From contig JAIXUD010000010.1 of NCBI GenBank assembly GCA_027483645.1, forward strand, positions 1 through 64,000: a stretch of DNA of 64,000 nt. Reading direction: 5' to 3'. Made by a program: the position numbers and the translations under genes. The DNA comes from Sphingobacteriales bacterium (GTDB lineage: Bacteria; Bacteroidota; Bacteroidia; Chitinophagales; CAIOSU01). Positions 26,675-44,016 of the stretch are shown one piece after another. The first letter of the stretch is position 1; every line of letters starts with the position of its first letter. The notes below the pieces were generated by a model. The model was given only the letters and a program-made list of their open reading frames with translations. It did not search any database and was not told the DNA's origin.

Positions 26675-26746
26675 CTGGAGGGATAACGGTGGTTGTTTAC
26701 TCGCTTTGGAAGCGAGTGGTCGCAGGTTCAAATCCTGCCCTCCAGA
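26675..26746 (+). tRNA. tRNA-Pro (anticodon TGG)
   Basis: C1-G72 acceptor ctggagg/cctccag, anticodon arm ctcgc-tttggaa-gcgag, T-arm gcagg-ttcaaat-cctgc. Confidence 0.75.
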
Positions 26747-26924
26747 CAAAAACTCCTAACCAACAAGTTGAGGAGGAAAGAGCTTGCTTGTGGCACCACT
26801 GGCGCTAGTGGTTGGTGGTGTGCAAACGGGAGTGGTTGAAGCCCACGGTTCCGACACTAAGCAGGAACAACGTTCGAAAAAGCCCATTTGACGGCCAACG
26901 GGCAAGCTCTTTCAAAGCATAACA

Positions 26925-26996
26925 GGAACCGTAGTTCAGCGGTAGAATCCCCGACTGTCTATCGGGTGGTCACGGGTTCGAATCCCGTCGGTTCCG
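26925..26996 (+). tRNA. tRNA-Asp (anticodon GTC)
   Basis: ggaaccg/cggttcc acceptor, anticodon arm cccga-ctgtcta-tcggg, T-arm acggg-ttcgaat-cccgt. Confidence 0.85.
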
Positions 26997-27000
26997 CTTT

Positions 27001-27096
27001 AGGCCTGTAGCCCAACGGCAGAGGCACCAGATTTAGGATCTGGACAGTGTGGGTTCGAACGGCGAAGCCCTCGTGCCAACACTCCCACCAGGCCCA
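27001..27096 (+). ncRNA. tRNA-like gene (anticodon TAG, class-I shape) with a 23-nt T-loop insertion
   Basis: Acceptor aggcctg/caggccc, anticodon arm ccaga-tttagga-tctgg, 5-nt variable loop, T-stem gtggg...cccac. The T-loop ttcgaac is followed by the insert ggcgaagccctcgtgccaacact, sharing its first 12 nt with the 26480 element. Confidence 0.55.
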
Positions 27097-27104
27097 CAAA
27101 TTAT

Positions 27105-27177
27105 TGGATGGTAGTTCAATTGGAAAGAGCATCGGGCTACGAACCCGAAGATGCAGGTTCGACTCCTGCCCATCCAA
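27105..27177 (+). tRNA. tRNA-Arg (anticodon ACG)
   Basis: Acceptor tggatgg/ccatcca, D-arm gttc-aattggaaa-gagc, anticodon arm tcggg-ctacgaa-cccga, T-arm gcagg-ttcgact-cctgc. Confidence 0.8.
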
Positions 27178-27188
27178 CTAACAAAAAG

Positions 27189-27403
27189 GGCGTCATTGCG
27201 AAGGCCTACTAGGTCTTGCAGTTCGAGCTAAACTTTAATGGCCTGAAGCAATCCCCCGACGAGGGGAGTGAATCGCATAGACCACTAAAGTGATGGTATT
27301 ATGTACTTGGTTCTGCGGTAAGCACAAACTATGCTCCGTAGCAGGGGATTGCTTCGTCGTTCAATTGCGCGAAAGGCGCAAATTGACTCCTCGCAATGAC
27401 GGC
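27189..27403 (+). ncRNA. Unclassified highly structured RNA candidate (about 215 nt) embedded in the tRNA array
   Basis: Closing helix gcgtcattgcgaagg / cctcgcaatgacggc. Nested helices gaagcaatcccc / ggggattgcttc and gcatag / ctatgc. Hairpins tcccccgacgagggga and ttgcgc-gaaag-gcgcaa. Confidence 0.45.
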
Positions 27404-27427
27404 TAGGGATTGGAGGTGATGTTAAAT

Positions 27428-27499
27428 TGTCTGGTGGTCTAATGGTTAGGATACTTCGTTTTGGAAGAAGTGGTGGTGGTTCGAATCCATCCCGGACAA
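27428..27499 (+). tRNA. tRNA-Gln (anticodon TTG)
   Basis: U1-A72 acceptor tgtctgg/ccggaca, anticodon loop ttTTGga, T-arm ggtgg-ttcgaat-ccatc, 4-nt variable loop. Confidence 0.7.
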
Positions 27500-27539
27500 C
27501 AAAAAATGAAAAAGTTGAAAATAAATTTTACTGCGCAAC

Positions 27540-27577
27540 AACGCTGCGCACCAGCGTTTCAACTTTGACATATTGTT
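27540..27577 (+). promoter_or_regulatory. Operator-promoter motif copy 2
   Basis: tACTGCGCAacaacgCTGCGCAccagcgtttcaACTTTG; spacing identical to copies 1 and 3. Confidence 0.6.
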
Positions 27578-27590
27578 ATTTGAAATCAAT

Positions 27591-27790
27591 ACTCCTCTAG
27601 CTTAAAAGGAAGAGCTGTGGTAAAAGTTACGGAACCATGTAGTGCCGGGATGATGCCTATAGAATCTCGCATTTTATAGGCTAGAATTTGCAGATGCACC
27701 GAAACACCGCTCTATAGAAGTGTAGTAGGGAAGCGCATTTATAGCCCGGCTGCCCTCGCGGGAGTCTCGGTTCGAGTCCGGGGAGGAGTG
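27591..27790 (+). ncRNA. 200-nt tRNA-like RNA with acceptor stem and canonical T-arm but about 150 nt replacing the anticodon region
   Basis: 5' actcctc pairs with 3' gaggagt. T-arm ctcgg-ttcgagt-ccggg sits directly before the 3' acceptor strand, and an agct...agct D-like stem follows the 5' strand. Internal helices include gcctata/tataggc and gccggg/cccggc. Begins about 15 nt after motif copy 2. Confidence 0.45.
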
Positions 27791-27796
27791 CGATTA

Positions 27797-27867
27797 GCAC
27801 CAGTAGCTTAATGGCAAAGCCCCTGTTTACCAAACAGGCAACGCAGGTTCGATTCCTGCTTGGTGCT
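27797..27867 (+). tRNA. tRNA with atypical anticodon ACC (Gly-like), 4-nt variable loop
   Basis: Acceptor gcaccag/ttggtgc, D-arm gctt-aatggca-aagc, anticodon arm cctgt-ttACCaa-acagg, T-arm gcagg-ttcgatt-cctgc. An A34 anticodon is unusual in bacteria outside Arg. Confidence 0.55.
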
Positions 27868-35999: not shown

Positions 36000-36821
36000 T
36001 TAGAACAGTAGCCCTTGAGAAATATGTTTTGGATGGAAAGTTCCTATTATTACAAAAGGATTAAGTGCTTTCCGTCTATGAAACTCAAGAGTAGTACCTA
36101 AGTAAAAATGTAAATCCTTTGTTTTGGCAAAATCCTCGAAATATTTCTTCCTTACCATTTCACATGCTTTTGCCTCATTTCCATTTGCACGGTAAAAACA
36201 ACTCCAAAACAGTTGACCAACTTCCCAATCTTCAATCATCAAAGTACTTCTGGTATTTGTTTCATCTTCGAAAGTAAACGAAAATTTATAAGGCAGTTTT
36301 CTTACAATTTCTAACCGATTATTGTCTTGTACATTTTCAAACAGGTTGATTTGCTTTAGTGATTCGAGTTTGTCTGCAGACCAATCTCTTTCAACTTCTT
36401 CCCAACTAAAATCTATAATTTTTGTAGGCTTAAAGACAGCTAACGAGGTCGTGATATTTGTATCAAGGGATTCGGCAATAAGCGCTTTCAAATTTCGATG
36501 GATTGTTTTCAACACTATTTTCCTTCGATCATGCCAAGCGTCTCCATCAGCAGCAATATCACTTAAAACTTTGATTTTTGCCTCATGAGAAGCTGGGCGG
36601 AAACTTTCGGGTCGAAAATCTTTTTCATTTTTAACCAAATCAATTTCTATCCATTGGTATTTCTTGTACTGCTCATGATAAGGGCGTTTTCTAAACTGAA
36701 TAGGGTAAATTCTAATCCAGCTTCCATCCTCTCGAAACCCAGCAGTACAAACTAATTCTGAATGTTTTTTTGAAATAGTAGGATAGGTTTTTACCGTAAT
36801 TAAAACCTTAGTTAGCGTCAT
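36000..36821 (-). CDS. Hypothetical protein, translationally coupled partner of the Panacea-DUF488 gene (candidate toxin/effector)
   Basis: 273 aa, no recognisable domain. Shares one nucleotide (36821) with the upstream gene. AT-rich relative to flanks. Confidence 0.5.
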   Translation of the reverse strand: MTLTKVLITVKTYPTISKKHSELVCTAGFREDGSWIRIYPIQFRKRPYHEQYKKYQWIEIDLVKNEKDFRPESFRPASHEAKIKVLSDIAADGDAWHDRRKIVLKTIHRNLKALIAESLDTNITTSLAVFKPTKIIDFSWEEVERDWSADKLESLKQINLFENVQDNNRLEIVRKLPYKFSFTFEDETNTRSTLMIEDWEVGQLFWSCFYRANGNEAKACEMVRKKYFEDFAKTKDLHFYLGTTLEFHRRKALNPFVIIGTFHPKHISQGLLF

Positions 36822-37723
36822 TAAATATGCTTTATCTCATAATTAAACCCAGGTAGGTTTCCTATTGATTCAGCTAAAGGTTTGCGATGACATTGGCAAA
36901 TATTCGCTTCAAAACAAGTTATTGCTACCCTATTGTACTTATGTAGCAAGTTTAATATTTTTTCTTGGAATTCTGTTGTGTTTTTTAAACTTTCATTTTT
37001 ATACCCTTCAAAAAGAGTATCATAGTCTTGTTGGGTACTTAATGTCTGCCTTTCATCAGAATTAATTCCAAGCTCTGGTATATGAATAAACTTAATTCCT
37101 ACACCTTCACAAGCGTTCAACAATTGTGATTTGCTAAACCCATATTTCATGCTGAATGAGTTTTTCCTAACATCACAAAGCACCTTTACGTCATTTCGTA
37201 TTAGCTTATTTAAATAAGATTCCAATGAAAGGCCCTCATATCCAATAGTAAAAAGGACTTTTTCATTCGATGTTGGTCGGAGGGAATTAACTTTCGCTAT
37301 TTCTTCTACATTCAATACTTGACTAAGTATTGTACTATTGATTGCGTAGTATGGATAGCGTTTATAGGTTAATTTTACTAAGTCGGTACCTGTTTTTGCT
37401 TTGTAATAAATTTTAATATCCGACAAGTGTTTTTGATCTTCCTTCTTTAATCCCCTTATATAGTCCAATGGGTCAGTTTTTACCCAACCTTGTTCAGTTT
37501 CCTGAACTTGTCCATATTTAGTCATCGTACCCAAATCGGCGTTAGCTTGAAAAGAATAACATCCGAATTTATATGGCACAAAATGGTATGAAGGCTCCTT
37601 CTGACCATTTGATAAAAGGAAAAGCAGCTTTTGCAATTGTACCTTTTCAAGCTTGTTGTCAAATGCTTGTAAAAGGGCTAAAAGTACTTTTCTTCTGTAA
37701 AACATTATGTAAAGATACTTCAT
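36821..37723 (-). CDS. Panacea (DUF4065)-like N-terminal domain fused to C-terminal DUF488 domain
   Basis: N-terminus LEKVQLQKLLFLLS...FVPYKFGCYS resembles the DUF4065/Panacea core (L-KLQKLLY...W-YGPV). C-terminus has DUF488 hallmarks TIGYEG and C-x5-CHR (ITCFEANICQCHRKP). Confidence 0.55.
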   Translation of the reverse strand: MKYLYIMFYRRKVLLALLQAFDNKLEKVQLQKLLFLLSNGQKEPSYHFVPYKFGCYSFQANADLGTMTKYGQVQETEQGWVKTDPLDYIRGLKKEDQKHLSDIKIYYKAKTGTDLVKLTYKRYPYYAINSTILSQVLNVEEIAKVNSLRPTSNEKVLFTIGYEGLSLESYLNKLIRNDVKVLCDVRKNSFSMKYGFSKSQLLNACEGVGIKFIHIPELGINSDERQTLSTQQDYDTLFEGYKNESLKNTTEFQEKILNLLHKYNRVAITCFEANICQCHRKPLAESIGNLPGFNYEIKHI

Positions 37724-37850
37724 GAATCCATGAAAGTCTAAATCAATATCCCCAATATGTTAACATGGTTGTACCAAAGGCTGGTCAAATGTCATTTTAT
37801 TCAGTAGAGGTTGATTCAGTTTTTCCAGTAACCAACCAACCAATAACTAA

Positions 37851-38013
37851 TCACCCCTTCTTAGGGCATTTCTTGCACGACTCGTTGCCTTTCTTTTTGT
37901 ACTTCTGGCAGCACTCTTTTTTGACCACACAGCAACAGCTCGCACATGGCGATAACCTGCTTCGGCTCTAGGAGCTCTTCTATAACTTGCTGACGAACTA
38001 AGATTTGTTTCAT
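37851..38013 (-). pseudogene. Cys/Lys-rich small-peptide gene, copy 1, frameshifted in an A-run relative to copy 2
   Basis: Frame 0 gives MKQILVRQQVIEELLEPKQVIAMCELLLCG; a +1 shift in the A6 run is needed to read the conserved tail KKECCQKYKKKGNESCKKCPKKG. About 80% nt identity to 40959-41120, with substitutions mostly at third codon positions. Confidence 0.45.
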
Positions 38014-38207
38014 GTATCAAGATTGGTGGGCTTACAAAAACGCAAAAATAGGAGTTAGGTCGGATTGTTTGATACAGTGAATGCCCTGTCTTTAATACTT
38101 TGCCCACTTTATATTAGCAGCGAATAGGTACTCTTGCTAATGCCGCTTGCTTATATCGCCTTTTCTGAAATTTTTCATACATTTACGCCCCTCAACTATT
38201 TACTACT

Positions 38208-39839
38208 ATGGCTGATCTGTTTAGAAAGAAATCCATCGAGCACCTGATGAAGGAAGCCGAGCCTGGCGAACATACGCTTAAGCGCACGCTTGGGCCTTGG
38301 GCGCTAATTGCCATCGGTATTGGTGCCATCATTGGTGCAGGCTTGTTTGTACAAACGGCCAATGCCGCTGCCAGCCATGCCGGCCCTGCGGTTACCATTG
38401 CCTTTGTACTGGCCGGTTTGGGCTGTGCGTTTGCTGGCCTTTGCTATGCAGAGTTTGCCTCTATCATCCCTATTGCCGGTAGTGCCTACACGTACAGCTA
38501 TGCCACTATGGGCGAGTTTGTGGCTTGGATTATCGGGTGGGATTTGGTGCTGGAGTATGCCATTGGCGCTGCTACTGTAAGTATTGCATGGAGCGAGTAC
38601 CTAAATAAGCTGCTAAGCTATTTCGGCGTTGAAATACCCTATGCCTGGTGCCACTCGCCATTTGAGCACGTCAATGCTGTACTGGGGCCAAACATTGCCC
38701 AGTTCCCCGCTGAACTGGCTTCAACCGCTAAGGAAGGTATGTTATTGTTGCGCGATGACCAACTAGCTGCCTTGCCTGCCAATCTACAAGGCTTGGTAGA
38801 AACCTCGCAAGGCATGATAAATTTGCCTGCCCTGTTTATCCTTTTAGCACTCACGCTATTGCTTATTCGTGGCATGCAAGAGTCGGCTTTTGTAAACGGA
38901 TTGATAGTAGTTGCCAAGGTATCGGTAGTTATTTTATTTATCGTATTGGGTTGGTCATACATCAACCCGGTTAACCATGCCGAGTACATCCCTGCTGCTA
39001 CTACCTTCACCACTACCGATGGGGTTGCACATGCCTTTGGGGGGTTCTGGGGTATTATTGGTGCCGCAGGTGTTGTATTCTTTGCTTTTATCGGTTTCGA
39101 TGCCGTATCTACCACAGCTCAAGAAGCTAAAAACCCAGGCCGCGATATGCCAATCGGTATCCTAGGTTCTTTGGCTGTTTGTACCGTTTTGTATATCCTT
39201 TTTGCCCACGTACTTACTGGCGTAGCAAGTGTTGAAGATTTCCGTACTAATGGTAAGGAAGCCTCGGTGGCTTTTGCAATACAGCACTACATGCCGGGCT
39301 ACGATTGGTTAGCTAAGGGCGTAACGGTGGCCATTTTGGCCGGTTTCTCTTCGGTAATATTGGTAATGTTGATGGGCCAGTCGCGCGTGTTCTACTCCAT
39401 GAGCCGCGATGGTTTGGTACCAAAAGTGTTCTCTGATATCCACCCTAAATTCAAAACCCCGCACAAATCCAATTGGATATTCTTGGTATTCGTAGGTGCT
39501 TTTGCGGCTTTTGTACCTGGTAGTATTGTGGGCGAAATGACCAGTATTGGTACCTTATTTGCCTTTATGCTGGTATGTGCCGGAGTATGGATTTTGCGCG
39601 TGAAACATCCTAACCTACCTCGCAAATTCAAAACCCCGCTGGTGCCATTGGTGCCCATCTTGGGTATTTTGGCTTGTGGCGTAATGATTTACGGCCTTGG
39701 CTGGACTAACTGGATGCGACTACTTGTATGGCTCGCCATTGGAGTGGTTATCTATTTTATATACGGTATACGCAAGAGCAAGCTGGGTAAAGGAAATGAG
39801 GCTTCGGTCGATAAACTGGACCTGCCCACGCCTGAGTAA
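38208..39839 (+). CDS. Amino acid permease (APC superfamily)
   Basis: 543 aa, 12 or more TM helices, APC-type N-terminus (…WALIAIGIGAIIGAGLFV). Confidence 0.85.
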   Translation: MADLFRKKSIEHLMKEAEPGEHTLKRTLGPWALIAIGIGAIIGAGLFVQTANAAASHAGPAVTIAFVLAGLGCAFAGLCYAEFASIIPIAGSAYTYSYATMGEFVAWIIGWDLVLEYAIGAATVSIAWSEYLNKLLSYFGVEIPYAWCHSPFEHVNAVLGPNIAQFPAELASTAKEGMLLLRDDQLAALPANLQGLVETSQGMINLPALFILLALTLLLIRGMQESAFVNGLIVVAKVSVVILFIVLGWSYINPVNHAEYIPAATTFTTTDGVAHAFGGFWGIIGAAGVVFFAFIGFDAVSTTAQEAKNPGRDMPIGILGSLAVCTVLYILFAHVLTGVASVEDFRTNGKEASVAFAIQHYMPGYDWLAKGVTVAILAGFSSVILVMLMGQSRVFYSMSRDGLVPKVFSDIHPKFKTPHKSNWIFLVFVGAFAAFVPGSIVGEMTSIGTLFAFMLVCAGVWILRVKHPNLPRKFKTPLVPLVPILGILACGVMIYGLGWTNWMRLLVWLAIGVVIYFIYGIRKSKLGKGNEASVDKLDLPTPE

Positions 39840-39860
39840 TAGCCAGTTAAATTGAACATA

Positions 39861-39900
39861 AAAAATCCCGCCTAGCAATGCGCTTGGCGGGATTTTTTAT
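39861..39900. terminator. Bidirectional rho-independent terminator
   Basis: aaaaa-atcccgcc-tagcaatgcgctt-ggcgggat-tttttat. Confidence 0.8.
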
Positions 39901-39924
39901 ATTAAAAGATATGGCATCTTAACG

Positions 39925-40701
39925 TTATCCCATACCCTTTGCATCAATTATAGCAAAGCTCTTTTCGCCTATTGATAGAAAATATCCATTCGGTAAGCCT
40001 ACCAACCCTGGTGCATAATGGCTAAACATGGTTACGGTATCTGTAGTCCTATTCCAACAAAAGAAATCTGTTTTGTGATGGTAGCTGGCGTGAAAGAAGA
40101 TTTGATTGGCGTTACTTGAAATTGCAGAGGCACCAACAAAGGCTTCAGGAGTATCGGTGCCAGTAACTTCAAAAGTATCCAAATTTAATTCATACAAAAT
40201 GAAATCGGTATAGGTATATAACAGCACACGGTTTGTACCATGCTTGCACATGCAATAGCAGTCCAAAACATAAGGTTGTTTGTAAGTATCGTTTAATCCG
40301 AATAGTAGCTTCCCGTCCAAGTCAAAAACCGCCACTCCACTATTGTTAGGGCCAGTCATCCCCATTACGCCTTCATCAAAATAGCTTACTACAATTTTGT
40401 TGCGATGCACCAAAACATCTTGCACACCGTCGCCGACAAGGAAAGAGTACAATAATTGCCCTTCCAAGTTAAAAACATGCGCATTCTCTGGTCCCTTTGT
40501 ACGGGCGGCAATCACTAAGATACGGTGGTCTTCTAATCTTCTAATAATCGGAAATGTGATAGCAAATGGTAACTTAACATGACCGTAATTGCTAAATACA
40601 TTTAGCTCATTCGTCAAGGCTAAATAGTTACCTGCAATATCGGAATCAACATCCAATAATGTTTCGATACCAATATCGAGATCAAAAACAGTAACTTCCA
40701 T
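39925..40701 (-). CDS. Hypothetical protein
   Basis: 258 aa, repetitive beta-rich composition, no recognisable motif. Confidence 0.45.
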   Translation of the reverse strand: MEVTVFDLDIGIETLLDVDSDIAGNYLALTNELNVFSNYGHVKLPFAITFPIIRRLEDHRILVIAARTKGPENAHVFNLEGQLLYSFLVGDGVQDVLVHRNKIVVSYFDEGVMGMTGPNNSGVAVFDLDGKLLFGLNDTYKQPYVLDCYCMCKHGTNRVLLYTYTDFILYELNLDTFEVTGTDTPEAFVGASAISSNANQIFFHASYHHKTDFFCWNRTTDTVTMFSHYAPGLVGLPNGYFLSIGEKSFAIIDAKGMG

Positions 40702-40798
40702 ATCAAATCCAAAATAATTAGGCTGATTGTAATGACGTGTAAATTTGCCAAAAACTAGTTAAATAACAAGTATTACCAAGATAGAGGTAGGGGTAAAT

Positions 40799-40831
40799 GA
40801 ATTCGGCAATTCTGAAAATTCTGATTCAGAC
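40799..40831. repeat. Partial copy of the 18158-18251 MITE-like element
   Basis: gaattcggcaattctgaaaattctgattcagac matches the right half of the 18-kb element. Confidence 0.5.
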
Positions 40832-40958
40832 ATAATCGTAACAGCATCACTATATCGCCCGAAGGTCCCTCGTGAAAAACTCGGGATGACAAAACGTGTT
40901 AAGCCTTATTAATAACCAACCGTGGACCATCGACTGTGGGCCGTCAACCAATAACAAT

Positions 40959-41120
40959 CTATCCCTTTTTCGGGCATTTCTTGCAAGGCTCTTTGCCTTT
41001 CTTCTTGTACTTCTGGCAGCATTCCTTTTTGGCGCACTGCAACAACTCGCACATGGAGATGCCTTGCTTCGGCTCTGGGAGGCCTTCTATAATCTGCTGT
41101 CGTACTAAGGTTTGGTTCAT
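40959..41120 (-). CDS. Cys/Lys-rich small peptide (53 aa), copy 2 (intact)
   Basis: MNQTLVRQQIIEGLPEPKQGISMCELLQCAKKECCQKYKKKGKEPCKKCPKKG. Paralogous to 37851-38013, with conservation biased to codon positions 1 and 2. Confidence 0.5.
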   Translation of the reverse strand: MNQTLVRQQIIEGLPEPKQGISMCELLQCAKKECCQKYKKKGKEPCKKCPKKG

Positions 41121-41451
41121 GTGGAAAGAATGATGATAACTCTTCGCAAAACTATACCTTGTTTAGACGCAATCCAAATAACTTTACACTCCATTTTGGC
41201 TTTCACCTGTTTAGGTGAGGGTTTGGAAAGCACAAGAAATCGATGGCATTTTTTTGCACACAATGAACATTCATTTTGTGGGGAACTAATGGGTTCATTT
41301 CTTGTAATCGGTAAAGATGAAGTGTAACTTGAAATCACATTTCGGGTCTATACCAAGGAATGATTCATCCAATATTTACGTTGAAAATAAGCTAGCCATG
41401 TTGAAAGATGCCGACACCTTGGTGGTAACCGCCGCCGAAACCACCAGTACT

Positions 41452-44016
41452 ATGAAGACTACGAAAGGCGTAAAAACCTACACCTACGAGGAAGCCCTTG
41501 CTGAAAGTATTATTTACTTCAGGGGCGATGAGCTAGCTGCCAATGTTTGGATCAACAAATACGCTATAAAGGACTCGTTCGGCAATATCTACGAAAAGAG
41601 CCCTGACGATATGCATCGCCGTATGGCCAGCGAAATTGCCCGCATGGAAGCCCGCTACCCAAATCCGATTACAGAGGAGGAAGTGTATGCCGTGCTGAAA
41701 GATTTTAAGTATATAGTACCGCAAGGCGGCCCTATGACCGGTATTGGCAACAACTTCCAAGTGGCATCGCTGAGCAACTGCTTTGTTATCGGCAATTATG
41801 ATAATGCGGATAGCTATGGCAACATAATGAAAACCGATGAGGAGCAGGTGCAACTGATGAAGCGCCGCGGTGGGGTAGGGCACGACCTGAGCCACATACG
41901 CCCTACTGGCAGCCCGGTAATGAATAGCGCCTTAACCAGCACCGGTGTAGTGCCGTTTATGGAGCGTTTTAGTAACAGTACCCGCGAGGTGGCACAAGAT
42001 GGCCGCCGTGGTGCGTTGATGCTATCTATATCTGTAAAGCACCCCGATGCTGAGAAGTTCATCGATGCGAAATTGGACGGTACTAAAGTTACCGGTGCCA
42101 ACGTATCGGTAAAACTTGATGATGAGTTTATGCGTGCCGTAAAAGCCGGTAGTGCTTATACCCAGCAGTTCCCGGTGGTGGGCAATAACCCACGCATCAA
42201 AACGGAGATTAACGCCAAAGCGCTTTGGGATAAGATAATTTACAACGCATGGAAGTCGGCAGAGCCAGGCATTTTGTTCTGGGATACAGTTATTCGTGAG
42301 TCGATACCGGATTGCTACGCCGATTTGGGCTTTAAAACGGTGAGCACCAACCCTTGTGGTGAAATTCCGCTTTGCCCATACGATAGCTGCCGCCTGTTGG
42401 CCATCAACCTATATAACTACGTAACCAATCCGTTTACTCCAGAGGCGAAGTTCGACTTTGAACTGTTCAAGCAACATGCACGCTTGGGCCAGCGCATCAT
42501 GGATGATATTGTTGATTTGGAGCTAGAGAAGGTAGATGCCATCATCAAGAAGATAGAGCTGGACCCTGAGCCTTTCGAACTGAAACGTACCGAGCACGAG
42601 CTTTGGCAGAAGATACGCCGCAAGTGTATCGAAGGCCGCCGCACCGGTGTGGGCATTACTGCCGAAGGCGATATGATGGCCGCTTTGGGCATCCGCTACG
42701 GTTCTGAGGAATCGATTGTTTTTGCAGGGGAGGTTCAAAAGACCTTGGCTCTAGAGGCTTACCGCGCCAGCGTGGAGATGGCCCGCGAGCGTGGCAAATT
42801 CCCGATTTTCGATGCCGAGCGCGAGAAGAAAAATCCGTTTGTAAACCGTATTAAAGAAGCCGACCCAGCCCTATATAAAGATATGGTGAAGTACGGCCGC
42901 CGCAACATAGCGTTGTTGACCATTGCACCAACCGGCACCACCAGCCTAATGACGCAAACTACCAGTGGCGTGGAGCCTGCCTTTATGGTAAGCTACAAGC
43001 GCCGCCGCAAGGTAAACCCTAACGACCAGCAGAGCCGTGTAGACTTTGTAGATGGCGTAGGCGATAGCTGGGAAGAATACCACGTGTTCCACCACAAGTT
43101 TACCACTTGGTTGGAGACACAAGGCTACAGCCCTGAAGAGGTTGCCACTTGGGATACCGAAAAGCTGAACAGCATTATCGCTACATCGCCGTACCATGGC
43201 GCTACGGCCAATGATGTGGATTGGGTAATGAAAGTGAAACTGCAAGGTGCTATTCAGAAATGGGTTGACCACTCGATAAGCGTAACGGTAAACATACCGA
43301 ATGAAACTACCGAGGATATGGTGAGCCAAATATACATGACCGGCTGGGAGAGCGGTTGCAAAGGTATCACCGTATATCGCGATGGTAGCCGCAGTGGTGT
43401 ATTGCTGGCCGACGACAAAAAAGAGAAGAAGGAAGCGGTAGCCGAAAAAGGCCACAACGAGTTTGTAGAAACCGAAGCCCCAGTGCGCCCGCACAAATTG
43501 GAAGCCGATTTGATCCGCTTTAACAACAACAACGAGAAGTGGGTTGCCGTGGTAGGTTTGTATAAAGGCCGCCCTTATGAAATCTTTACCGGCCGTGCGG
43601 AGGATTCTTTCCTTACGCCAAGCTATGTAAACCAAGGGTGGGTTTTGCGCAACATTGACGAAGACGGCAAAACCCGTTATGACTTCCAGTTTCAAGACCG
43701 CGATGGCTACAAAGTAACCATTGAAGGTCTAAGCCGCTCGTTTACCAAAGAATACTGGAACTATGCCAAGTTGATAAGCGGCGTATTGCGCCACGGCATG
43801 CCGATACAATTTGCGGTGGACATTATCGAAAACCTGCACTTTGATGGCAGCGACCTAAACACGTGGAAAGCTGGTGTGGCCCGTGCGTTGAAGAAATTTA
43901 TACCCGATGGCACCCTGCCAGCCGAACGCCAGTGCAGCAACTGCGGCGACAACTCGTTGGTATACGAAGAAGGTTGCTTGAATTGCAAAAGCTGTGGGCA
44001 TAGCAAGTGCGGCTAG
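41452..44016 (+). CDS. nrdJ: Class II (adenosylcobalamin-dependent) ribonucleotide reductase
   Basis: Conserved RNR catalytic core (NPCGEIPL, thiyl-radical Cys region) and a C-terminal zinc ribbon CSNCGD...CLNCKSCGH. Start chosen at the internal ATG; 41317 and 41398 are alternatives. Confidence 0.85.
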   Translation: MKTTKGVKTYTYEEALAESIIYFRGDELAANVWINKYAIKDSFGNIYEKSPDDMHRRMASEIARMEARYPNPITEEEVYAVLKDFKYIVPQGGPMTGIGNNFQVASLSNCFVIGNYDNADSYGNIMKTDEEQVQLMKRRGGVGHDLSHIRPTGSPVMNSALTSTGVVPFMERFSNSTREVAQDGRRGALMLSISVKHPDAEKFIDAKLDGTKVTGANVSVKLDDEFMRAVKAGSAYTQQFPVVGNNPRIKTEINAKALWDKIIYNAWKSAEPGILFWDTVIRESIPDCYADLGFKTVSTNPCGEIPLCPYDSCRLLAINLYNYVTNPFTPEAKFDFELFKQHARLGQRIMDDIVDLELEKVDAIIKKIELDPEPFELKRTEHELWQKIRRKCIEGRRTGVGITAEGDMMAALGIRYGSEESIVFAGEVQKTLALEAYRASVEMARERGKFPIFDAEREKKNPFVNRIKEADPALYKDMVKYGRRNIALLTIAPTGTTSLMTQTTSGVEPAFMVSYKRRRKVNPNDQQSRVDFVDGVGDSWEEYHVFHHKFTTWLETQGYSPEEVATWDTEKLNSIIATSPYHGATANDVDWVMKVKLQGAIQKWVDHSISVTVNIPNETTEDMVSQIYMTGWESGCKGITVYRDGSRSGVLLADDKKEKKEAVAEKGHNEFVETEAPVRPHKLEADLIRFNNNNEKWVAVVGLYKGRPYEIFTGRAEDSFLTPSYVNQGWVLRNIDEDGKTRYDFQFQDRDGYKVTIEGLSRSFTKEYWNYAKLISGVLRHGMPIQFAVDIIENLHFDGSDLNTWKAGVARALKKFIPDGTLPAERQCSNCGDNSLVYEEGCLNCKSCGHSKCG

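Follow-up and report, generated by a model that had tools for sequence, protein, structure and literature searches.

A widespread Bacteroidota family of small Cys/Lys-rich proteins with Fur-box-like promoters, represented by two paralogous loci in a Sphingobacteriales contig

Two small-protein loci and their family

The window analyzed in this work comprises 64,000 nucleotides (positions 1 to 64,000 of the forward strand) of the contig JAIXUD010000010.1 from the genome assembly GCA_027483645.1 of a Sphingobacteriales bacterium. Two loci on its minus strand, designated copy 1 and copy 2, encode related Cys- and Lys-rich proteins of about 53 amino acid residues (aa), which, judging from profile searches, belong to a Bacteroidota family that is widespread but still without a name, comprises proteins of 25-60 aa and has promoters that resemble targets of the regulator Fur. 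The main features of the loci, as determined by open reading frame (ORF) listing, MAFFT alignment, a single-base deletion scan and profile matching, are the following:

40959-41120, minus strand: copy 2, an intact 53-aa ORF, stop codon included (MNQTLVRQQIIEGLPEPKQGISMCELLQCAKKECCQKYKKKGKEPCKKCPKKG)
37851-38013, minus strand: copy 1, a paralogue broken by one extra base
37917-37926, minus strand: the stretch of copy 1 that holds the extra base (GGTCAAAAAA), with its A6 run at 37917-37922
41398-44016, plus strand: nrdJ, the gene of a class II (B12-dependent type) ribonucleotide reductase, divergent from copy 2 (Pfam Ribonuc_red_lgC, E 2.6e-91)

The two loci lie where a preliminary description had placed them and are 78-85% identical. 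Repeat finding aligned 37837-37923 with 40945-41031 at 85% identity and 37919-38028 with 41026-41135 at 78% identity, the offset between the two segments changing by one base, and in the MAFFT alignment a single 1-nt indel separates the copies. A degenerate 26-nt back-translation of the conserved core occurred twice in the window versus 0.00 expected occurrences in shuffled sequences. Once one base had been taken out of copy 1, the copies differed at codon positions 1, 2 and 3 in 4, 6 and 17 cases, respectively, with a ratio of nonsynonymous to synonymous substitution rates (dN/dS) of about 0.10; downstream of the indel eight of the nine differences occupied third positions of the shifted frame (dN/dS 0.02). 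The earlier claim of protein-coding conservation of a 53-aa peptide is thereby upheld, and both loci are real protein-coding genes under purifying selection. Since their raw synonymous divergence reaches 0.53, the duplication must be old.

Two 53-aa relatives were retrieved by a word-indexed search, and four further loci were found by a genome scan in Chitinophaga or Sphingobacteriales metagenome-assembled genomes. All six related loci keep an intact ORF of 51-53 aa with synonymous changes and one in-frame 3-nt deletion, which bears out the protein-level conservation in related genomes as well. In each of the six a class II ribonucleotide reductase gene is located upstream of the small gene and divergently from it (tblastn), and for this reason copy 2 is regarded as the conserved orthologue, while copy 1, of which no orthologue turned up, is regarded as a lineage-specific duplicate. 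This conserved neighbour had been missing from the preliminary description. The start codon of nrdJ assigned here (41398) is an ATG conserved in all seven loci, the mechanically called ORF beginning at 41317; across these loci, conservation of the stretch separating copy 2 from nrdJ exceeds that of the coding sequence itself.

A profile built from the close relatives revealed about 30 further proteins of 42-58 aa ending with KKxCCKKYKKKGxxCK[KS]CPK, and a HMMER search of 1.84 billion representative sequences (E<=1e-3) yielded 254 clusters at 50% identity, nearly all of 40-60 aa. In addition, a scan with a degenerate DNA pattern recovered at least 120 metagenome loci from freshwater, marine and soil samples, encoding members of 25-63 aa; the counts of 122 loci and 82 upstream regions used below are those of the matches listed. 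The C-terminal 20 residues of the family are near-invariant and very basic, and the N-terminus is variable and often contains CxxCxC. Only four Cys are invariant, in the arrangement CC...C-x2-C, where the spacing between the CC pair and the next Cys varies from x8 to x10, being x8-x9 in most members. The majority possess 4-7 Cys in about 47 residues, and some members of 25-35 aa have up to nine, e.g., MADKCCKKKCCKKYKKKGKDHCKKCPKVCKKCEG. No named members were found, those in the clusters being annotated as 'hypothetical protein' only; Pfam gave no match for the window peptide or for any of 31 members analyzed, a PDB sequence profile search returned nothing at E<=10, and a literature string search for the peptide core produced no matching paper.

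The preliminary description likened the leader-plus-core layout of the peptide to a precursor of a ribosomally synthesized and post-translationally modified peptide (RiPP), the Cys-rich core of which would be modified by nearby enzymes. The small size, the bipartite look and an N-terminal 'leader' conserved within the clade agree with this proposal. However, the near-invariant C-terminal part combined with a variable N-terminus is the reverse of what RiPP precursors display, and no signal or GG-type cleavage motif was recognized. Nor were radical-SAM, lanthipeptide, YcaO or peptidase/transporter genes detected beside the window copies or in the distant family loci L007-L009, and no modification genes appeared among the recurrent neighbour clusters of the 122 listed loci, most of which were identified by inspection. 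A RiPP precursor is therefore highly improbable.

Conservation of the gene pair and of its intergenic region in seven loci of the clade might alternatively mean that the small protein works specifically with the class II ribonucleotide reductase, as its redox or assembly partner; this enzyme itself has a Cys-rich tail at its C-terminus. This linkage, though, is confined to the clade: even a distant reductase-like gene was present within the fetched flank in only two of the 122 listed loci, and the small gene has unrelated neighbours in L007-L009. We regard such a partnership as quite improbable.

As for the extra base in copy 1, the N-terminal 30 codons of this gene are in frame 0 and its Cys/Lys tail is in the +1 frame, so that the ORFs comprise one of 50 aa at 37861-38013 and the conserved tail in another frame at 37851-37928. 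The previously proposed +1 shift is indeed needed at or beside the A6 run, but it cannot be pinned to that run: removal of any one base at positions 88-97 of the coding sequence, i.e., anywhere in 37917-37926, restored the full-length protein. Taking out G, T or C just 5' of the run results in C[GV]KKECC, in slightly closer agreement with the family than CGQKECC, the outcome of contracting the run, and the run remains a possible, not a demonstrated, site of the extra base. Purifying selection has acted on the tail of copy 1 throughout almost the whole period following the duplication, and the insertion must therefore be either recent or an artefact. We give a recent inactivating mutation somewhat less than an even chance and consider a sequencing or assembly error quite possible. 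The other window genes checked during a search for further homopolymer frameshifts were intact, a mild argument against an assembly that is error-prone in general; two overlapping ORF pairs that had looked suspicious proved to be separate genes and inform neither way.

It is improbable, in our estimation, that copy 1 is expressed despite the extra base, by +1 slippage of tRNA-Lys on CAA-AAA-AGA (with the rare AGA in the A site), by transcriptional slippage or by phase variation of the A6 run. The tail was kept under purifying selection in the shifted frame, the zero-frame CAA-AAA-AGA would let tRNA-Lys re-pair from AAA to AAA in the +1 frame, and among the Arg codons AGA is the one least used in the long genes of the window (1.6 per 1000). 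Against this, out-of-frame reading of Lys-Lys-Glu produces a rare AGA automatically, efficient slippage would usually call for a run longer than A6, and the repair that fits the family best places the extra base before the run. Neither a conserved shift site nor a long homopolymer was found: no frameshift interrupts the ORFs of at least 120 other family loci or of the seven orthologous loci, so phase variation and programmed frameshifting, both suggested earlier, are unlikely.

Promoters and the Fur box

Upstream of both copies the following promoter elements were predicted:

41147-41154, minus strand: putative -7 box of copy 2, TAGTTTTG (TAnnTTTG), of the Bacteroidota type
41175-41178, minus strand: putative -33 element of copy 2, TTTG, 20 nt upstream of the -7 box
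41161-41179, no strand assigned: Fur-box-like palindrome ATTTGGATTGCGTCTAAAC (minus-strand reading), spanning the -33 element and the spacer of copy 2 in the region shared with nrdJ
38043-38050, minus strand: putative -7 box of copy 1, TATTTTTG, with no Fur-box-like palindrome upstream

The -33/-7 type of promoter is known from Flavobacteria (PMC5609570). In the alignment of the two copies the TAnnTTTGCG box is kept in both, and the similarity is lost farther upstream. For the flavobacterium Riemerella anatipestifer, a 19-bp Fur box, ATTTAGAATTATTCTAAAT, was predicted within 100 bp of the start codon at Fur targets, and promoter fragments containing this sequence were shifted by purified Fur in an electrophoretic mobility shift assay (PMC5609570). 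Sites deviating from ATTTAGAATTATTCTAAAT at no more than four positions and located at most 100 nt from the start were present in 51 of the 82 distinct family upstream regions listed, versus 13 of 434 control regions located upstream of other ORFs in the same loci. The palindrome TTTRGA-N5-TCTAAA, identical to the published Fur box, also precedes distant family members, the usual layout being TAnnTTTG-TTTAGAATTATTCTAAATAAGG-ATG. On the basis of these upstream sequences, Fur control of the family appears to be well supported.

For copy 2 itself the picture is less straightforward. The intergenic region between copy 2 and nrdJ holds AAAGTTATTTGGATTGCGTCTAAACAAG just upstream of the -7 box, and the site at 41161-41179 matches ATTTAGAATTATTCTAAAT at 13 of 19 positions: the outer half-sites (TTTGGA...TCTAAA) are kept and the centre is GC-rich. 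Between the window and the loci L001-L006 only the centre differs, the outer half-sites being the same in all. This site, lying about 220 nt from the start of nrdJ, is the only TTTRGA-N5-TCTAAA site in the window and its second-best position-weight-matrix match (behind 37399-37417), and the palindrome is the best matrix match in each orthologous locus; copy 1 has no such site. Since its own palindrome matches at only 13 of 19 positions and has a GC-rich centre, the case for Fur control of copy 2 is based on the conservation of the site, and we consider such control plausible. An interpretation of the conserved palindrome as an RNA hairpin of the 5' untranslated region (UTR), for which the A-to-G change in the left half would be G-U compatible, was dropped in view of tandem sites upstream of the -7 box and of the identity to the Fur box.

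Several observations made in the course of the Fur-box survey concern other genes. Three control-region hits are located in front of ORFs of about 700-740 aa (L040, 8762-10861; L044, 6503-8722; L059, 5585-7810), the N-termini of which resemble those of TonB-dependent receptors by eye only. TonB-dependent receptors are a classic Fur target, and if these ORFs do encode them, they would provide independent support for the identity of the Fur box in these uncultured Bacteroidota. In the case of two ORFs of about 213 aa (L074, 6690-7331; L096, 2381-3019), the N-termini of which resemble receiver domains of response regulators, a nearly perfect Fur box, GTTTAGAATGATTCTAAAT, lies 1-2 nt upstream of the start codon; both loci also hold the small gene and a ferritin gene, and this arrangement may represent an iron-responsive regulatory cassette. 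The members in L012, L056, L071, L082, L093 and L104 lack an ATG and have an apparent GTG start right after the Fur box (…TCTAAATAAGTG…); the 5' UTR would therefore be extremely short or the mRNA nearly leaderless.

The upstream/leader region of nrdJ (41180-41397, plus strand) is non-coding and very strongly conserved across the seven loci. It contains the palindromes TCACCTGTTTAGGTGA (about 41203-41218) and CACACAATGAACATTCATTTTGTG (about 41258-41281), as well as the invariant blocks GGAATGATTCATCC and GTTGAAAAT directly before the nrdJ ATG; these elements probably bind proteins that control expression of the class II reductase gene. Rfam matches in the window were restricted to tRNAs, with no credible match in 40700-41450, and a riboswitch in the nrdJ leader found no support at an RNAalifold energy of -2.65 kcal/mol with almost no covariation. 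An NrdR box seems unlikely at CACACAATGAACATTCATTTTGTG, the 7-8-7 spacing of which does not suit the 16-bp length of NrdR boxes.

Cysteine motif, ferritin linkage and a proposed role

The four conserved Cys of copy 2 are arranged as C34 C35 - QKYKKKGKEP - C46 - KK - C49, i.e., as CC-x10-C-x2-C. The same spacing, C-C-X10-C-X2-C, forms the atypical 2Fe-2S site of FhuF, in which all four ligands are situated in one loop (bioRxiv 10.1101/2023.07.04.547673). The only NCBIfam models matching the window peptide were those of FhuF-type siderophore ferric reductases, and the match covered the last 27 model positions, with scores far from full-length membership (20.7 bits versus the cut-off of 137.9 for TIGR03950; 15.5 versus 63.85 for TIGR03951). 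Among the 31 family members 18 matched the TIGR03950 or FhuF models, always with the C-terminus (best E 2.4e-5), and no other families were matched; none of 10 tail-shuffled or reversed control sequences matched FhuF models. By these sequence comparisons, the resemblance to FhuF is at the level of a motif and not of family membership. The small zinc-ribbon protein proposed in the preliminary description is retained in that metal binding seems likely, but not in the kind of site: instead of two CxxC knuckles on beta-hairpins the peptide has one CxxC and an adjacent CC pair, and the specific match is to the FhuF-type 2Fe-2S motif.

A metallothionein-like buffer or chaperone, which would bind Zn, Cu or Fe(II) directly and supply or sequester the metal when Fur is inactive, was also considered. 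The Cys/Lys-rich, aromatic-poor composition resembles that of metallothioneins, and some short members, of 25-35 aa, have up to nine Cys. Yet only four Cys are invariant and most members contain just 4-7 of them in about 47 residues, the strictly conserved non-Cys positions (KKYKKKG, CPK) speak for a definite fold or for a surface contacting a partner and not for a loosely organized thiolate cluster, and Fur control suits iron better than Zn or Cu. This role is accordingly thought improbable.

When ORFs within 3.5 kb of the family gene were clustered over the 122 listed loci, ferritin was among the commonest neighbours. These ferritins match Pfam PF00210, and their best NCBIfam model is that of non-heme ferritin (Ftn type), not of bacterioferritin. 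A ferritin gene was found within about 1.1 kb of the family gene in 20 of the 122 loci listed (tblastn), in three arrangements: directly upstream on the same strand (15 loci), where the intergenic region, read by eye, contains a terminator-like hairpin followed by a Fur-box promoter; about 0.5 kb downstream (four loci, including L096 with a DUF6686-matching ORF in between); and about 1.1 kb upstream (one locus). Ferritins of the different arrangements are only about 37-56% identical to each other, and by our own estimate a chance ferritin neighbour is expected in well under 1% of loci. A small protein acting on stored iron is known in Bfd, a small 2Fe-2S ferredoxin that passes electrons to the heme of bacterioferritin, causing iron release; bfd expression follows the Fur-controlled iron response and declines, as does iron uptake, under iron sufficiency (PMC12363616).

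Considering the promoters, the Cys motif and the ferritin neighbours together, we suppose, with about even confidence, that the family consists of miniature Fe-S or metal-binding proteins, repressed by Fur, produced upon iron starvation and possibly serving as Bfd-like partners of ferritin. Under iron-replete conditions Fur would bind the palindrome and block the promoter, and upon iron starvation the protein would be made. Its four invariant Cys would hold a FhuF-type [2Fe-2S] cluster or another metal ion, and its poly-lysine surface might dock on an acidic partner, most plausibly ferritin, to which electrons would be passed so that stored iron is released, as with Bfd. In the Chitinophagaceae-like clade, sharing of the control region with the class II reductase, which is iron-independent, would be consistent with a switch that spares iron. 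Copy 1 is an old local duplicate, long under selection, without a Fur box and situated at the edge of an AT-rich defence island.

A number of facts weigh against this reading. The similarity to FhuF is short and statistically weak (hhalign probability 2.8%), searches of Pfam and PDB sequences gave no match, and family members have anything from 8 to 10 residues between the CC pair and the next Cys. The AlphaFold2 model, computed from the alignment of 31 sequences, was unusable (predicted local distance difference test score, pLDDT, 56.6; predicted template modeling score, pTM, 0.21), its quality being insufficient for judging the fold. The production of an Fe-S protein during iron starvation looks paradoxical, though Bfd does exactly so. 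Ferritin adjacency concerns about 16% of the loci listed, 15 of the 20 cases come from one related lineage, and no ferritin gene was found in the 64-kb window or in L007-L009. Finally, the palindrome of copy 2 agrees with the Fur box at only 13 of 19 positions, its centre having diverged.

The same data were weighed for a different iron-related role, that of a Fur-regulated basic nucleic-acid-binding protein, in which a Zn knuckle and an RNA/DNA-binding Lys tail would act in post-transcriptional iron sparing, as in FbpA/B/C of Bacillus subtilis. Nucleic acids are common ligands of Lys-rich Cys knuckles. FbpA/B/C take part in the iron-starvation response as small, basic proteins under Fur control, and a role as RNA chaperones was proposed for them (PMC7430163); the present family is similar to them in size, extreme basicity and Fur-box promoters. 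Nevertheless, such a role leaves unexplained both the recurrent ferritin adjacency and the resemblance to the FhuF loop, including the Tyr at the third position after CC, and a profile search of all PDB chain sequences, presumably with Bacteroidota ribosome structures among them, was empty. We hold it to be unlikely.

A more specific version of the Fe-S protein proposal is that the family constitutes a new minimal class of [2Fe-2S] ferredoxins, i.e., a free-standing FhuF-type loop of about 25 residues with a poly-lysine docking surface, acting as a Fur-controlled electron donor that releases iron from heme-free ferritins of Bacteroidota and, in Chitinophagaceae-like genomes, co-regulated with an iron-independent reductase switch. 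Taken as a whole, this chain of suppositions is rather doubtful.

Bacteroidota dominate many soil, freshwater, marine and gut habitats. To our knowledge, iron recovery from heme-free ferritins is poorly understood in bacteria, and the widespread conserved family described here may be regarded as a concrete candidate for such iron release across the phylum. Of the routes of ferritin-iron recovery, only that of bacterioferritin and Bfd is well described (PMC12363616). The family would also represent an overlooked addition to the Bacteroidota Fur regulon, as gene callers skip genes of 25-60 aa and no Pfam or NCBIfam model covers it, and the string CCKKYKKKG could serve as a sequence marker for iron-starvation responses in metagenomes.

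Genomic surroundings and comparison with known systems

The neighbours of the two copies in the window are genes of an amino-acid permease, a PDC-M19 pair, a 258-aa protein and the ribonucleotide reductase. Both small genes had been described earlier as lying upstream of an unknown gene, a position that appears incidental because the downstream genes are not conserved in homologous loci, where they differ from one locus to another. Only the gene after copy 2, a 258-aa ORF (39925-40701, minus strand; GC content about 39-40%), stayed without a match in Pfam, NCBIfam and PADLOC. Immediately after copy 1, two genes that overlap each other (36000-37723, minus strand) gave full-length PADLOC matches to the candidate anti-phage system PDC-M19 (M19A, E 1.6e-126; M19B, E 1.5e-119); one product is of 300 aa, with DUF488 and a DarG-like N-terminal region, the other of 273 aa, and the pair is situated in an island of 33-37% GC within surroundings of roughly 50% GC.

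ATTGGTT-like repeat units (GTTATTGGTTGG...) occur 3' of the small gene at 40905-40958 and 37815-37850 and in orthologous loci, and GC-rich units resembling repetitive extragenic palindromes (REP), GTGGACCGTCGAC / GACGGCCCACAGTCGATGGTCCACGG, were noticed after copy 2 and in L003-L005. Seven tRNA genes, five at 26675-27867 and the others at 26-97 and 1506-1578, are unrelated to the small-protein genes.

Taken one by one, the parts of the family resemble something known (membership of a Fur regulon, the cluster loop of FhuF, a logic like that of Bfd), and for the family itself neither annotation nor literature was found. With the Fur regulon of Riemerella it shares the same 19-bp palindrome within 100 bp of the start codon, but the small-protein family is absent from the listed Riemerella targets. 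FbpA, FbpB and FbpC, compared by size, charge and regulation only, are likewise small, strongly basic and Fur-regulated; they belong, however, to another phylum, and RNA chaperoning together with the small RNA FsrA was proposed for them. We know of no invariant Cys motif in the Fbp proteins comparable to that of the present family.

The comparison with FhuF (PDB 7QP5) extends to details of the loop. E. coli FhuF ends with RRTCCQRYRLPDVQQCGDC, and the window protein contains KKECCQKYKKKGKEPCKKC; both have a Tyr three residues after CC and flanking basic residues (RRTCCQRYR in FhuF, KKECCQKYK in the window protein), and FhuF is an iron-metabolism protein, too. At the same time, FhuF is a protein of 262 aa in which a siderophore-synthetase-like domain carries the cluster loop as an appendage, whereas the window protein of 53 aa consists nearly entirely of the loop, and most family members have x8-x9 instead of x10.

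Bfd is a small (about 50-65 aa) Cys-ligand protein with a Fur-type iron response, often encoded beside an iron-storage gene; the family is similar in size and, judging from its promoters, probably in regulation, and has a ferritin gene nearby in 20 of the 122 loci listed. The Cys pattern of Bfd, C-x-C...C-x2-C, is unlike that of the family, none of the 31 members gave a Bfd-type Pfam or NCBIfam match, and Bfd serves the heme of bacterioferritin, while the neighbours of the family are heme-free ferritins of the Ftn type. The likeness to Bfd would thus be one of functional analogy, namely in the reductive release of stored iron.

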